A DNA stretch of 32,000 nucleotides from Methanothermus fervidus DSM 2088 (GTDB lineage: Archaea > Methanobacteriota > Methanobacteria > DSM-2088 > Methanothermaceae), in NCBI GenBank assembly GCA_000166095.1, contig CP002278.1, forward strand, positions 240,001 through 272,000, written 5' to 3'. A program made the translations under genes and the position numbers. This document shows, piece after piece, positions 21,342-31,887 of the stretch (the first letter of the stretch is position 1; each line of letters begins with the position of its first letter). The notes under the pieces are model-generated. The model was not told the origin of the DNA. It saw nothing but the letters and a program-made list of their open reading frames with translations, and ran no database searches.

Positions 21342-22415
21342 ATGAAAATTCAGGAATTAACAGCCAAAATTAGGGAAAATTATATGAAAAATAGAAAAGA
21401 AATACCAATGGAAAAATTATGTAGGTTTTGGATACAGGAAGACTTGCTTTATTCAGGAAAGGGGAAAGCAATGTCAATAGTATTTCCAACGAGAGGATGT
21501 AGTTGGTCACTTTCAAAATATGGTGGATGCACAATGTGTGGTTATGTTAAAGACACATTATTAAAAACTCCGAATCAAGAAAAATTAAAAAAATTATTTG
21601 ATGGTGTTATTTCTTCTTGTCCAAAAGAAGAAAATATTGCAATAAAAATATTTACTTCTGGAAGCTTTTTTAATTCTAAAGAATTACCAGAGAGTGTTAG
21701 ATACTATATATTACATAAATTATCAAAGTTAGAGAATGTTAGTGAAATATCTGTTGAATCTAGACCAGAATATATTAAAAAAGAAATTCTTAAAGAATGT
21801 TGTGAAATACTTCAAGACAAAATTTTTGAAGTTAGCATTGGGTTGGAAAGCTCCAATGATGAAACAAGAATTTATAAAATAAACAAGGGATTTACATTAA
21901 AGGACTTTGAGAATGCACTAAGAAAAATAAAAAGTTTAAAGAAAGAATTTAACATAAAAACAAAATCATATATTCTAGTTAAACCAATTTTAATGACAGA
22001 AGAAGATTCAATAAAAGATTCTATAAATTCTGCCATTTATGCTGAAAAAGTTGGAATTGATAGGATATCTTTTTGTCCAGCTACTGTTCATGCAGGTACA
22101 TTGATGGAAAATTTATGGAAATGGGGAGCATATAGACCTCCTTGGATTTGGAGTCTTGTAGAAATTATAAATAAAGTACGTGAAACAATTGAAATACCTG
22201 CAATAATGGATACTGCAGGTATGGGATCAAAAAGAGGTCCACATAATTGTGGAAGGTGTGATTCAAAATTAAAAAAATTAATAATACAATCAAATTTAGA
22301 TCAATCTCCAGTTCCAGAAATAAAATGTAAATGTAAAAAACGTTGGAAAGCAGAAAAATATGGAGAAAGAATTACAGCATCGTCCGGCATAATAAAATAC
22401 ATTCATTTAAGGTGA
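21342..22415 (+). CDS. radical SAM protein, probably the archaeosine-biosynthesis RaSEA (TIGR01210-like) family
   Basis: The cluster is C53-x9-C63-x2-C66 (TRGCSWSLSKYGGCTMCGY). TIM-barrel-like repeats follow (FTSGSFF, ESRPEY, IGLES). The C-terminus carries CGRC...KCKC. The specific family call is from memory. Confidence 0.6.
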   Translation: MKIQELTAKIRENYMKNRKEIPMEKLCRFWIQEDLLYSGKGKAMSIVFPTRGCSWSLSKYGGCTMCGYVKDTLLKTPNQEKLKKLFDGVISSCPKEENIAIKIFTSGSFFNSKELPESVRYYILHKLSKLENVSEISVESRPEYIKKEILKECCEILQDKIFEVSIGLESSNDETRIYKINKGFTLKDFENALRKIKSLKKEFNIKTKSYILVKPILMTEEDSIKDSINSAIYAEKVGIDRISFCPATVHAGTLMENLWKWGAYRPPWIWSLVEIINKVRETIEIPAIMDTAGMGSKRGPHNCGRCDSKLKKLIIQSNLDQSPVPEIKCKCKKRWKAEKYGERITASSGIIKYIHLR

Positions 22416-24229: not shown

Positions 24230-26227
24230 ATGCACAAAAAATTAAATACCATAACCCTCACCATCATAATTTTTCTTTTAGCCTTTTCAATTAGAATTGC
24301 AAATTACAATTTAACAGTCCATAACCCTACAAAAATTTATTTTCAGGAAAGTGATTCATATTACAATTATCGGTTGGTAAATAATATTCTTAACCATGGA
24401 TATCCTGGAGATAAAATAATAAATGGAAAAGAGTGGGATATTCATTCTTACTATCCTCCAGGAGTACCTAGAGATTATCCACCGCTTCTACACTACATTA
24501 CGGCAGTACTCTATTCTTTATTCTCTGAAGTTTGTAAAATTTCATTAAAGCAATTTTGTATTTGGCTTCCACCATTTTTTGGATCAGTGACAAGTGTTGC
24601 TGGATTTCTATTTTCACGTAAAATAAGTGGGGATTTTGGTGGATTTATAACTGGCATGTTAATTGCGACATATCCGACATATTGTTATAGAACGTGTCTT
24701 GGTTTTTTCAATGTAAATCTTTTATATACTTTACTTCCAATTATTTTGTATTGGATATTTTTTGAAATTGAAAATTGTGTATCATTACAAAAAAAATTAA
24801 TTTATTCAATATTTGCAGGTTTTTTAATGTTTTTAATCTCATTATCTTGGAATGGTTGGATATATTTCTTTTATTTGGTTGTTTTGTCAATGACAATATA
24901 CTTAGTATCTAGTAGTGATAAGAAAGAGAAAATAAAAGAAATAGTTTTTCCATTTTTTGTAACTTTCTTTTTATTTTTATTAGCTTTCAATAAACTTGCA
25001 TTCTATGAAATATTTGCAACGCCAATTACTTATGTACATTTCTTTTCAAACTCAAATATATGGTATCCATGGCCCAATAGCTACAAAGATGTTATGGAAT
25101 TGCGTCCAGCAACAATGCAAGAAATTATTATTTTAATTTTTTTATTAGTATTTATTTTTGGGATTATTTACACCAAAGCTTTAAACGATCTTTTTCCAAA
25201 ATTTACAAGAATAATGTTATATTCTTGGATAATTTCCTCTATTTTATTAACAATGAAACATGTCAAATTTTTTTTACTACTTTTTGGACCTTCATTCATT
25301 TTTGTAGGTGCTGCATGGAAAAAATATGAAAATATCCTAAATCATCTTAAAATCCAATCAAAAAGAAAAATTATTGTAATTTTTAAAATTGCTATTTTGT
25401 TCATTTTAGTTTTAGTATTTTATTTCTCTATTAATTATGCAAAAGGATATAAACCGATGTATGATGATTATTTTGAAAATGCGGCCTTATGGATAAAAAA
25501 TAATACTAATAATGATACTGTTGTGATAACTTCTTGGAGTTATGGCCATTTTTTTGCCAGTGAATCAGATAGACCTGTTTCGTTTGATGGAAGAATAGGT
25601 TATATTGAAACATTGCCAATAAGGAAAATTTTGTATTCTAATACTAATTTAAGTCCTGATGTCCCAACTACTGCTCGTGATTACTGGATAAATGTTGCAA
25701 TTACGACAAACAATACTCTTTTATCAAAAAATATATTAAAAATGTTGGCTACAAGTGGAGATAATGGATATTTATTATTAAATAATTATACCCACAACAA
25801 AACTCGTTCATTTACTATACTTAACAAAATATTAACGTTAAATAGAAGTTCAGCATATGTAACTTTAAAAAAGGAAGGAATACCTGATGAAAAAGCTAAA
25901 AAAATTTTGAATTGTACACACCCTACTACTCCACGAAATTTTGTTTTAGTTATGACTGATGAAATGTTGTTGTCACTTCCATTTGTTAATATCACATCCA
26001 AAAATAAATTGGATTTAAAAAATGTATATTCCATAATTAAAAATGGATCTGAGAAAATAATAAACAAAAATGGCAAATATTCGCTTGTAATTTTAGATGA
26101 TAAAGCATTGATTGTAAATAAAAATTACAGATATTCTATATGTGTAAGAGCTTTTTCACAAATGAAAATCGAAGGTTTTACAAAAGTTTTTGAAAATAAA
26201 AGAATAAAAATATATGAAGTAATCTAA
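24230..26227 (+). CDS. STT3/AglB-like GT-C membrane glycosyltransferase with a divergent catalytic motif
   Basis: GGTGGA SD is present. The first-loop motif QESDSYYNYR resembles the STT3 DPYFNYR-type motif. About 13 hydrophobic segments are followed by S-W436-S-Y-G-H where WWDYG is expected, then a soluble C-terminal domain of about 220 aa. Confidence 0.55.
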   Translation: MHKKLNTITLTIIIFLLAFSIRIANYNLTVHNPTKIYFQESDSYYNYRLVNNILNHGYPGDKIINGKEWDIHSYYPPGVPRDYPPLLHYITAVLYSLFSEVCKISLKQFCIWLPPFFGSVTSVAGFLFSRKISGDFGGFITGMLIATYPTYCYRTCLGFFNVNLLYTLLPIILYWIFFEIENCVSLQKKLIYSIFAGFLMFLISLSWNGWIYFFYLVVLSMTIYLVSSSDKKEKIKEIVFPFFVTFFLFLLAFNKLAFYEIFATPITYVHFFSNSNIWYPWPNSYKDVMELRPATMQEIIILIFLLVFIFGIIYTKALNDLFPKFTRIMLYSWIISSILLTMKHVKFFLLLFGPSFIFVGAAWKKYENILNHLKIQSKRKIIVIFKIAILFILVLVFYFSINYAKGYKPMYDDYFENAALWIKNNTNNDTVVITSWSYGHFFASESDRPVSFDGRIGYIETLPIRKILYSNTNLSPDVPTTARDYWINVAITTNNTLLSKNILKMLATSGDNGYLLLNNYTHNKTRSFTILNKILTLNRSSAYVTLKKEGIPDEKAKKILNCTHPTTPRNFVLVMTDEMLLSLPFVNITSKNKLDLKNVYSIIKNGSEKIINKNGKYSLVILDDKALIVNKNYRYSICVRAFSQMKIEGFTKVFENKRIKIYEVI

Positions 26228-29371: not shown

Positions 29372-29887
29372 ATGCATGTTCTTAAGGCAATAAAAGAAAG
29401 GAGAAGTATAAGAAGTTTTAAAGATAAAGACATTCCCCAAGAGTATATAAAAAAAATAATGGAAGCTGCAATTTGGGCACCATCTGCAGGAAATCTCCAA
29501 AGTAGGAAGTTTATAATAGTGAAGGATTCAAAATTAAAGTATGAACTTACAAAAGCTGCTTATATGCAAGAATTTGTAATGGAAGCCCCAATTGTAATAG
29601 TGGCATGTGCAGATTTAATTAAGTCTGCTTCAAGATATGGAGAAAGAGGAAGAGAACTTTACTGTCTCATGGACACTGCTGCATCAATACAAAACATGTT
29701 ACTTGAAATACATGAATTAGGTCTTGGAGCTTGTTGGATAGGTGCTTTTGACGAAGAATATGTTAAAAAATTGCTTAAGCTACCAGATTCATTGAGACCT
29801 ATAGCACTCATACCAGTTGGTTACCCTGATGAATCTCCAACTCCACCCCCTAGAGTTAGTATAGATGATGCATTTACAATCATTTAA
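29372..29887 (+). CDS. nitroreductase-family flavoprotein
   Basis: MHVLKAIKERRSIRSF...APSAGNLQ...ACWIGAF is seen. ATG 29372 lies behind GGAGGA. The ORF-track start at 29339 overlaps the AAA gene and is rejected. Confidence 0.8.
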   Translation: MHVLKAIKERRSIRSFKDKDIPQEYIKKIMEAAIWAPSAGNLQSRKFIIVKDSKLKYELTKAAYMQEFVMEAPIVIVACADLIKSASRYGERGRELYCLMDTAASIQNMLLEIHELGLGACWIGAFDEEYVKKLLKLPDSLRPIALIPVGYPDESPTPPPRVSIDDAFTII

Positions 29888-31887
29888 TCTAAATTTAATC
29901 TTTTTCCATACCATTTTTTATAATATTCCATATATTCTCCTGTTTTTATTCGTTTCCACCATTCCTTGTTTTCTATATACCATTTTATAGTTTTTTCAAG
30001 GCCTTCTTCAAATGAATATTCGGGCTTCCATCCTAATTCATTTTTAATTTTGCTAGAATCTAATGCATATCTATAATCATGGGCTGGCCTATCTTTAACA
30101 AACTTTATTAGTGATTGTGGTTTATTTAATTTTTTTAATATTAATTTTACTACCTCTATATTCCTCTTTTCATTGTTAGCACTCACGTTGTAAATTTCAC
30201 CATTTTTACCTTTATGTAAAATTAGATCAATAGCTTTACATGTATCTTTAACATATAACCAATCTCTGATATTTGATCCATCACCATAGATAGGTAATGG
30301 TTTATTTTCAAGGGCATTGGTAATCATTAACGGTATAAATTTTTCTGGGAACTGATAAGGACCATAATTGTTTGAAGGTCTAACAATGTTAACAGGTAAA
30401 CCATAAGTTTTGTGATAAGATCTAACAAGTAAGTCAGCTCCTGCCTTACTAGCTGCATATGGACTGTTTGGTTTTAATGGCGAATCTTCTGTGAAATATC
30501 CTTCATCGCCTAGAGTTCCATATACTTCATCTGTTGAAATTTGTATAAATTTTTCAATACCATATTTGCGGGCAGATTCTAGTAGTACTTGAGTACCTAA
30601 TACATTTGTTTTAACAAATCTACCTGGTTCCATTATGCTTCTGTCAACGTGTGTGTTATGAACTACTATGTTTCCTACGCCAGCAACAAAATTATGAGAT
30701 CCTTCAACTTCTAAGTCATATACAAATCCTTCATATTTTTTTTCCGTAATTTTTTTACTTTTAAATTTACAATTTCCTACTTTGATATTATATGCATTCA
30801 TTTTATAGTCCACATAAAACTCTTTACCTATTAATAAAAGCAATAAACAAACTTCAGCTGCTAATCTTCTTGAGCTTGTCAAAAATTCTTCTTTTCCATT
30901 GTTAATTCCTTTCACTAAACTTTTCCAAAATATTTCTTGATACTCTTTTCCAATGTTAAATACAAAATTAGGAATTTTTTTACTATCACCATCATTACAA
31001 AATTTTGTACAGATTTTATAAAAATCTTTATTTTTCAACTTAAGTTGTAGAGTACCATTGTTTTCTGTTATTAAGCTGTTTCCATCAAAAATATTTTTAA
31101 AATCGTCAGATAAAATTTCTAACCAGCTTTTGTCATTGTCATTGATAATGACATAATTTTGTTTGAGATAACCACTTGAAATATAAGCAGCAAGTAATCT
31201 ACATAGAAACTTTAATTTTTTATCATTAAACATTCCTAATATTTTTGGATGTTTTATCTTTTTATCTCTGCATGAGAAATTCATGTCTCTTACATATAAT
31301 AGAGAGGGATTGGATTTCGCTGCTACAACCTTTCCATGTGTATTGTATACAGAGTGATTTGGTGTTACAAGAACTTCTCCTTGTTTTTGTTTTAATTTTA
31401 GAATCTTTCCTCTATATGGATGTCGAATAATTTTCCGAAGAGGTAGGAAAGTCCCAGAATTATTATAAAAAGATAATACCTTTATTTTTTCATTTGATGT
31501 ATCAATGATTTCATGTTTTCCATCCCAAATTACTTTGTTGCTTTCTTTCAATCTTTCGAATAATTTTTTCATGCTAAGTACTTGTATTTCACCATTCCAA
31601 TGAACAGTCACAAATTCTTCTTCAGCAACACTTTCAGCTGCAAAATTTACAATATAATCACATTCATACTTTTCAATTAATTTTTGAATTAGCTTTCCAT
31701 CAGTTATGCAACCTTTAACAAAGCTATAATTAGGAGCATCTTCAACATCTTTAAGATTTTCTAAATTACCTGAATATGTTAATTTATCTAGATTTATTAT
31801 TTTATATTGTGGATATTTATTCACCATATAACGTACAAAATTACTTCCAATAAACCCAGCTCCTCCAGTAACTAATATAACACTCAT
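29884..31887 (-). CDS. rfbB: dTDP-glucose 4,6-dehydratase interrupted by an in-frame intein (341-aa extein plus 326-aa intein)
   Basis: The N-extein is VTGGAGFIGSNF...NFAAE. The C-extein is THVDRSI...ISTDEVYG...SPYAASKAG...DGSNIRDWLYV. GGTGGTGAG SD is present. The ORF is about twice the usual length. Confidence 0.9.
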   Translation of the reverse strand: MSVILVTGGAGFIGSNFVRYMVNKYPQYKIINLDKLTYSGNLENLKDVEDAPNYSFVKGCITDGKLIQKLIEKYECDYIVNFAAESVAEEEFVTVHWNGEIQVLSMKKLFERLKESNKVIWDGKHEIIDTSNEKIKVLSFYNNSGTFLPLRKIIRHPYRGKILKLKQKQGEVLVTPNHSVYNTHGKVVAAKSNPSLLYVRDMNFSCRDKKIKHPKILGMFNDKKLKFLCRLLAAYISSGYLKQNYVIINDNDKSWLEILSDDFKNIFDGNSLITENNGTLQLKLKNKDFYKICTKFCNDGDSKKIPNFVFNIGKEYQEIFWKSLVKGINNGKEEFLTSSRRLAAEVCLLLLLIGKEFYVDYKMNAYNIKVGNCKFKSKKITEKKYEGFVYDLEVEGSHNFVAGVGNIVVHNTHVDRSIMEPGRFVKTNVLGTQVLLESARKYGIEKFIQISTDEVYGTLGDEGYFTEDSPLKPNSPYAASKAGADLLVRSYHKTYGLPVNIVRPSNNYGPYQFPEKFIPLMITNALENKPLPIYGDGSNIRDWLYVKDTCKAIDLILHKGKNGEIYNVSANNEKRNIEVVKLILKKLNKPQSLIKFVKDRPAHDYRYALDSSKIKNELGWKPEYSFEEGLEKTIKWYIENKEWWKRIKTGEYMEYYKKWYGKRLNLD
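30655..31632 (-). mobile_element. intein (Hint splicing domain plus degenerate LAGLIDADG endonuclease domain), protein residues 86-411
   Basis: Block A is S86-VAEEEFVTV (AGT at 31630-31632). Block B is LVTPNHSV (T at 31363-31365). Blocks C, D, E and H are LLAAYISSG, KKIPNFVF, LVKGINNGK and RRLAAEVCLLLLLIG. Block F is FVYDLEVEGSHNFVA. Block G is GNIVVHN (N411 at 30655-30657), followed by +1 Thr412 (30652-30654). Confidence 0.85.

Follow-up and report, generated by a model that had tools for sequence, protein, structure and literature searches.

A class-1 intein with a very probably inactive endonuclease interrupts the dTDP-glucose 4,6-dehydratase of Methanothermus fervidus

The nearest characterised relative of the element described here is PI-PkoII, the second intein of the Thermococcus kodakarensis KOD1 DNA polymerase (PDB 2cw7), with a template modelling (TM) score of 0.75 when normalised to the query. 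PI-PkoII resides in DNA polymerase B, comprises 537 amino acids (aa), contains extra DNA-binding parts and was deposited as 'Endonuclease PI-PkoII'. In the field of sugar-nucleotide metabolism, Table 2 of Novikova et al. (PMC4760082) lists UDP-glucose dehydrogenase (UDP-GlcDH, COG1004) as a host, with 10 inteins, and dTDP-glucose 4,6-dehydratase (RmlB) does not appear in that table. Here, we analysed a 32,000-nucleotide stretch of the Methanothermus fervidus DSM 2088 genome (contig CP002278.1, positions 240,001 to 272,000; hereafter, the window), in which the gene encoding RmlB is interrupted by an intein. The best explanation of the data, to which we assign a probability of roughly 0.88, is a class-1 intein in RmlB with its splicing function intact, its endonuclease dead and the element as a whole immobile. 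By its mechanism and architecture this is a standard LAGLIDADG-type class-1 intein, that is, an ordinary element in an unusual host gene.

The open reading frame (ORF) in question occupies the last 2 kb of the window and lies on the minus strand. An earlier reading of the locus, made from the sequence only, had placed an intein at positions 30655-31632, and these coordinates proved to be exact, with the Ser86 codon at 31630-31632 and the Asn411 codon at 30655-30657. The parts of the precursor are given below. The conservation values refer to 82 same-site relatives, which are clusters at 90% identity, and to profile A1, a family profile built from 16 related inteins; all carrier counts are lower bounds.

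29884 to 31887, minus strand: precursor ORF, intein-containing RmlB (dTDP-glucose 4,6-dehydratase), 667 aa plus stop codon.
31633 to 31887, minus strand: N-extein, residues 1-85, with the GGAGFIG NAD-binding motif (31837-31866) and the beta4 motif DYIVNFAAE (31633-31659).
30655 to 31632, minus strand: intein, 326 aa, residues 86-411, in which a LAGLIDADG-type domain is inserted into a Hint splicing domain.
31594 to 31632, minus strand: block A, SVAEEEFVTVHWN, in which Ser1 is the N-terminal nucleophile (Ser1 in 82/82 relatives).
31345 to 31380, minus strand: block B, GEVLVTPNHSVY, containing T90-x-x-H93 (Thr and His in 82/82; invariant columns in profile A1).
31168 to 31197, minus strand: block C, the first LAGLIDADG helix, LLAAYISSGY, with the catalytic Glu replaced by Ser (model helix 137-153).
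30964 to 30981, minus strand: block D, KKIPNF, with K218 and P221 invariant in profile A1.
30892 to 30918, minus strand: block E, the second LAGLIDADG helix, LVKGINNGK, with the catalytic Asp replaced by Ile (model helix 229-244).
30826 to 30864, minus strand: block H, LAAEVCLLLLLIG, which aligns with the family (model helix 255-268).
30682 to 30723, minus strand: block F, VYDLEVEGSHNFVA, with a conserved Asp (82/82) and His (65/82).
30655 to 30675, minus strand: block G, GNIVVHN, with the penultimate His and terminal Asn411 (His-Asn in 82/82; TIGR01443 match).
29884 to 30654, minus strand: C-extein, residues 412-667 plus stop codon, with Thr+1 in THVDRS (30637-30654), ISTDEVYG (30517-30540) and YAASK (30445-30459).

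The host protein was recognisable on both sides of the insert. The equivalog model for dTDP-glucose 4,6-dehydratase (TIGR01181) matched at 489.1 bits (cutoff 365.1), with the match divided into two parts on either side of the insert. Joining residues 1-85 to 412-667 in silico yielded a 341-aa protein which, as the sequence-only reading had proposed, was a single colinear dehydratase: it aligned with the solved RmlB 6bi4 without any gap over the junction (ivnfaaeThvdrsi versus IVNFAAESHVDRSI; E = 1.5e-133). Four solved intein-free RmlB proteins (6bi4, 2hun, 1g1a and 1kep) were colinear with the full spliced extein and had its motifs in common, but all of them lacked the insert. The cofactor motif GGAGFIG and the catalytic motifs ISTDEVYG and YAASK are kept in the exteins, and all align with solved RmlB. 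The expectation that excision would restore a motif of canonical length was borne out by 28 intein-free relatives, in which FAAE[S/T]HVDRS is uninterrupted, with Ser in 26 and Thr in 2 at the position corresponding to +1. Residues 86-411 are absent from intein-free RmlB and do not form an integral domain of the enzyme. Around the insertion point the intein-free rmlB target reads TTTGCAGCTGAA / ACACACGTTGAC, also written GCAGCTGAA / ACACACGTTGAC (slashes mark insertion points or junctions throughout). The insertion point is located directly after the beta4 motif [DE]xhhHxAA of extended short-chain dehydrogenases/reductases (SDRs), a motif which we take, from SDR motif surveys and the RmlB and GalE structures, to line the NAD pocket.

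The insert itself was identified by several profiles and by its predicted structure. The search with Hint-domain hidden Markov models (HMMs) that the sequence-only reading had suggested was positive throughout, with Pfam Intein_splicing PF14890 at 48.2 bits (cutoff 35.8; E = 1.3e-12), TIGR01445 (intein N-terminal) at 28.2 (cutoff 24.5) and TIGR01443 (intein C-terminal) at 30.4 (cutoff 15.6). When compared with solved structures, profile A1 matched PI-PkoII (E = 5.6e-41), and the alignment took in the splicing domain as well as the endonuclease domain. The AlphaFold model of the intein had a predicted local distance difference test score (pLDDT) of 90.7 and a predicted TM score (pTM) of 0.91. 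The top PDB matches of this model in Foldseek were PhoVMA, TliVMA, PI-PkoII and PI-PfuI, all of them endonuclease-bearing inteins (TM 0.71-0.76), and the E values for solved inteins were as low as 6.5e-20. The sequence-only reading had listed every intein block in order, and all eight motifs were indeed found once each and in that order; their integrity had nevertheless been overstated, as blocks C and E are devoid of catalytic acids. Residues 86-411 are a class-1 intein of the Ser1/Thr+1 type, with Ser at position 1, TxxH in block B (T175-P-N-H178 in precursor numbering), a C-terminal His-Asn and Thr+1 (...VVHN411 / T412). Six cysteines are located within the intein, and the junctions use none, in agreement with the earlier claim: Ser1 and His-Asn are canonical and shared by 82/82 relatives, and at +1, 81 of the intein-bearing alleles have Thr and 1 has Ser. 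A shifted junction, FAAES / V...HNT / HVDRS, was rejected, since Val cannot serve as the nucleophile at position 1 and the last intein residue has to be Asn.

The 667-aa ORF was 100% identical to the M. fervidus DSM 2088 protein ADP77083.1 (WP_013413361.1, UniProt E3GXQ1). The identical protein was recorded on 8 contigs, independent sequencing-run assemblies among them, and the intein-containing ORF is therefore not an assembly artefact. In databases, ADP77083.1 is named 'NAD-dependent epimerase/dehydratase' or 'dTDP-glucose 4,6-dehydratase', and the intein is mentioned in none of these names. The public names thus conceal an intein that makes up half of the ORF, as well as a mature enzyme of 341 aa instead of 667 aa. 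In a Logan assembly, the M. fervidus gene was broken by a frameshift within the intein into ORFs of 296 aa and 343 aa (P0271/P0272), most likely through an assembly error. The NCBI gene call for Methanotorris igneus (P0048) starts at a Met within the intein and gives 598 aa, whereas an older record is full length (694 aa). Both the split gene and the internal start seem to be errors of assembly or annotation to which the insert gave rise.

In the proposed mechanism, the Hint domain would fold after translation and Ser86 would attack the Glu85 carbonyl in an N-O acyl shift. Thr412 would then take over the N-extein by transesterification, cyclisation of Asn411 would free the 37.7-kDa intein, and an O-N shift would create a normal peptide bond in a 39.4-kDa RmlB reading ...NFAAE-THVDRS.... 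These calculated masses, together with 77.1 kDa for the precursor, are in line with the values of about 39, 38 and 77 kDa forecast by the sequence-only reading, and the predicted junction-spanning tryptic peptide of the spliced form is YECDYIVNFAAETHVDR. Before splicing, the Rossmann fold would be interrupted between beta4 and alpha4. Because the intein splits the NAD-pocket region, the precursor is expected to be inactive until spliced, and dTDP-rhamnose synthesis would therefore depend on splicing, which is presumably needed for the dTDP-rhamnose supply.

We also considered an insert that no longer splices, leaving rmlB disrupted and non-functional or persisting as a permanent extra domain. 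The decaying state of the endonuclease part would suit such an interpretation, and so would the frameshift within the intein in P0271/P0272, if it were not most likely an assembly error. However, all the residues known to be necessary for splicing are intact and invariant in the 82 relatives, and the ORF has stayed open over 2 kb in a genome of 31% GC (the GC content of the window being approximately 31%). Moreover, no RmlB catalytic or cofactor motif is missing from the exteins, whose score exceeds the equivalog cutoff, and in none of the aligned orthologues has the insert been retained as an integral domain with changed junctions. The genes rmlA, rmlC and rmlD are intact nearby, and a working RmlB is therefore to be expected. 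Taken with these observations, the loss of splicing appears very unlikely.

The full-length search retrieved 82 clusters of 645-738 aa with an insert at the identical site (FAAE / S...HN / THVDRS). These inserts were homologous over their whole length and 32-50% identical to the M. fervidus intein; Ser1, the block B Thr and His, the block F Asp and the terminal His-Asn were invariant in 82/82. An intein-only query of a word-indexed protein database gave one weak match, which was due to the limits of the index and not to rarity, as the family was recovered both by the full-length query and by an exhaustive profile search. Cultured carriers besides M. fervidus included Methanotorris igneus Kol 5 (AEF95734.1), Thermococcus prieurii and T. 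henrietii. About two dozen more came from a pattern scan in which each GTDB species was represented by one genome, among them a Nitrososphaeria archaeon, Saccharibacteria and other candidate-phyla bacteria, as well as Omnitrophota, Chloroflexota, Rokubacteria, Planctomycetota and Armatimonadota; the scan yielded no M. fervidus, M. igneus or T. prieurii locus, and its species count is thus a lower bound. Among RmlB sequences, which number many thousands, the RmlB-site intein is rare; its occurrence is widely scattered and extends beyond M. fervidus. The suspicion that the insertion site might be rare or unlisted was accordingly correct as to rarity, and no mention of it was found in the literature searched, but with at least 82 clusters at 90% identity the site is not unique. 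A literature search, which did not extend to the intein registry InBase, revealed no paper pairing 'intein' with dTDP-glucose and, among the papers listed, none pairing it with rmlB or rfbB. For sugar epimerases a single paper, on prasinovirus genomes, came up, and the matches for rhamnose and GDP-mannose had no bearing on the subject except for the UDP-GlcDH entry of Novikova et al. InBase reportedly lists 'Ter Ndse' inteins in a nucleoside-diphosphate-sugar epimerase of Trichodesmium erythraeum, which would be a previous registry entry from the enzyme superfamily of RmlB; no paper in the literature searched combined 'Ndse' with 'intein', and the GTDB pattern scan returned no Trichodesmium locus. 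As a separate observation, one RmlB of 705 aa (P0090) has an intact FAAESHVDRS but carries a different, Cys1 intein in a catalytic motif (FLQIS / CYDDKS...), which represents a second intein insertion site in RmlB.

The endonuclease domain is predicted to have kept its fold and has lost its catalytic residues. In the AlphaFold model, two LAGLIDADG helices are present in an alpha/beta core, and the central domain superposes on the LAGLIDADG enzyme I-DmoI at about 2.7 Å over approximately 175 alignment columns. The LAGLIDADG HMM search recommended by the sequence-only reading was negative: LAGLIDADG_3 (PF14528) gave no match in the M. fervidus intein even at E <= 1, whereas most relatives do match. 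Block C reads YISSG in M. fervidus versus YISEG in the family (Glu in 78/82 relatives, Ser in M. fervidus only), and block E reads KGINN versus GDG (Asp in 76/82, Ile in M. fervidus only). The acidic residue that active LAGLIDADG endonucleases have at the motif ends is therefore absent, and loss of both catalytic acids was seen in one other lineage only (P0034/P0035). Several segments found in relatives are deleted as well, and at 326 aa the intein is among the shortest members. Replacing the LAGLIDADG acids is known to abolish cleavage in PI-SceI, I-CreI and I-DmoI. Because both metal-binding acids are gone, and such loss abolishes cleavage in those enzymes, the M. fervidus intein is very probably immobile and its nuclease inactive.

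These data bear on the possibility of a fully functional mobile intein, whose homing endonuclease would still cut intein-free rmlB alleles and spread. The LAGLIDADG fold is predicted with high confidence, and in most relatives both catalytic acids are retained and Pfam LAGLIDADG_3 gives a match. Moreover, when the exteins are ranked by identity, the six nearest intein relatives (47-50% identity, from Thermococcus and uncultured archaea) come only 30th to 81st of 81. Closeness by intein is thus not matched by closeness by extein, which suggests past horizontal movement of the intein, but differences in evolutionary rate could contribute. Yet in M. fervidus the acids are replaced by Ser and Ile, a substitution established to abolish cleavage in the three model enzymes, no LAGLIDADG Pfam domain was detectable and segments of the relatives are deleted. 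We consider present-day mobility the least credible of the alternatives. An intein that is immobile and splices remains our preferred explanation; its LAGLIDADG domain would still fold but, without the metal-binding acids and several segments, would not support homing. It would then be a fixed resident, retained only since imprecise loss would destroy RmlB.

A compositional signature of recent acquisition was sought and none was found. The GC content is 27.4% in the intein, 26.3% in the N-extein and 30.5% in the C-extein, and GC at third codon positions (GC3) is 18% in the intein versus 16% in the host gene. The intein thus matches its exteins in both measures, which points to, and fits, a long residence in rmlB. 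Persistence of the element despite loss of the nuclease might also indicate that the intein has been co-opted as a conditional-splicing switch, gating the synthesis of dTDP-rhamnose and glycan precursors in response to temperature or some other signal. Another intein from a hyperthermophile, that of Pyrococcus horikoshii RadA, has been shown to splice conditionally (PMC4513877). The position of the M. fervidus intein within the NAD-binding region, with a precursor expected to be inactive, would be suitable for such a role. Nevertheless, no sequence data require regulation, the difficulty of precise deletion explains persistence equally well and most RmlB proteins do without an intein. A regulatory role is thus unlikely, and it would in any case be compatible with, and does not exclude, the splicing-competent, immobile intein favoured here.

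Several considerations tell against that explanation. Conserved catalytic residues are no guarantee of splicing, which for the M. fervidus precursor we infer from its sequence, and the apparent nuclease loss is deduced from two residues and an alignment. Ser1/Thr+1 inteins of hyperthermophiles often splice poorly when cool, and an assay in Escherichia coli may consequently mislead. Finally, a second, intein-free rmlB in M. fervidus, if present, could render the intein-bearing copy dispensable.

The surroundings of the gene were examined on longer M. fervidus contigs. There, rmlC (PF00908) is the divergent neighbour of the intein-bearing rmlB, while rmlD (PF04321) and rmlA (PF00483) are located 3-4.5 kb upstream of rmlB, just beyond the window. 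Between rmlD/rmlA and rmlB/rmlC lie a GGGP-synthase-like gene (PcrB), a DUF498 gene and a Gate-domain gene (L068:1860-6269). A 665-aa ORF with an STT3/AglB oligosaccharyltransferase domain is encoded on the plus strand of the window (24230-26227), approximately 4 kb from rmlB, and the AglB/STT3 pathway is a plausible consumer of the rml nucleotide sugar. Elsewhere in the window, a 357-aa ORF (21342-22415, plus strand) had no Pfam match at E <= 1e-5. No tRNA genes were present in the window, and Rfam and tandem-repeat scans of it returned nothing.

The exhaustive profile search, covering 1.84 billion representative proteins, gave 300 matches at E <= 1e-30. Among the best approximately 30 matches, most were extended SDRs of 600-735 aa in which the intein, at residue ~80-92, immediately followed hhHxAA-x in every case. 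The hosts included RmlB, GDP-mannose 4,6-dehydratase (Gmd; TIGR01472; HN / SHV.VSF), an RmlD-like reductase and LegB-like and GalE/RmlB-like enzymes. The next-closest relatives were found in DNA polymerase B motif C (many of them from giant viruses), phage portal proteins, PrkA kinases and a DNA ligase. Whether these inteins form an undescribed lineage on the NAD-pocket beta4 site of extended-SDR enzymes, jumping between paralogues (RmlB, Gmd, RmlD-like and LegB-like) and among archaea, bacteria and large viruses, is a question on which we find the arguments evenly balanced. Such jumps would likely occur by ectopic homing at the shared beta4 motif, with viruses as carriers. If true, the beta4-site lineage would offer a natural system for studying how inteins gain new host genes.

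Individual loci are recorded here as separate observations. Homologues of the RmlB intein were present at the beta4 site (hhHxAA-x / S...HN / Ser or Thr) of paralogous extended SDRs in P0126, P0132, P0134-P0136, P0141, P0149 and P0125. A Gmd from an uncultured Saccharibacteria (L023:5548-8814, CAYTBY010000001.1) contained two inteins. The first of them (site a, GAQ / SVTG...VVHN / SHVKVSF) lies at the RmlB-homologous site and shares 38-40% identity with RmlB inteins, a value inside the range spanned by the RmlB-intein family itself; the second is a Cys1 intein at NHE / C...IHN / SPRRG. Three IMG/VR viral contigs (L075, L072 and L074, of 113.6, 62.7 and 33.0 kb) carried the same intein family in RmlB-like SDR and Gmd genes, with the junctions HGAAE / S...HN / THVDNS and HN / SHVRVSF, respectively. 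In many giant-virus contigs, related inteins occupied DNA polymerase B motif C (YGD / S...HN / TDS). More distant Ser1/Thr+1 inteins (20-25% identity) were detected in the AAA domain of the PrkA serine protein kinase in ~35 bacterial species (L026-L066) at the site DIDEVIIGH / SVAG...VCHN / TNEPEY, e.g., in Oscillochloris trichoides DG6 (L048:4918-8226) and Thermus tenuipuniceus (L028).

RmlB is a metabolic, non-replicative intein host, with the insertion site in an NAD-binding motif. The survey of Novikova et al. (PMC4760082) emphasised ATPase and replisome proteins, and RmlB carries the known tendency of inteins to occupy cofactor- or substrate-binding motifs beyond these. A single allele with nuclease motifs that are intact in M. 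igneus and Thermococcus and dead in M. fervidus provides a natural series along the homing cycle, and the same-site inteins in paralogues and viral contigs provide a testable case of intein movement to new host genes. A thermophilic intein with Ser/Thr instead of Cys nucleophiles could also be of interest to protein engineers.

In comparison with known systems, the M. fervidus intein has in common with PI-PkoII the Ser1 residue, the C-terminal His-Asn and the combination of Hint and LAGLIDADG domains. It differs in its length of 326 aa and in the absence of catalytic acids, and the structure-based identity of the two is only ~16%. The archaeal UDP-GlcDH inteins likewise reside in a host of cell-envelope sugar-nucleotide metabolism, but in an unrelated enzyme family and at an unrelated insertion site; the two are likened here by host pathway. 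The RmlB inteins of M. igneus, T. prieurii, T. henrietii and uncultured archaea and bacteria share the insertion point, block order and splicing residues of the M. fervidus intein. Most of these RmlB-site relatives keep both YISEG and GDG, which the M. fervidus intein has lost, and they mostly measure 331-382 aa (two at 312 aa), compared to 326 aa in M. fervidus.

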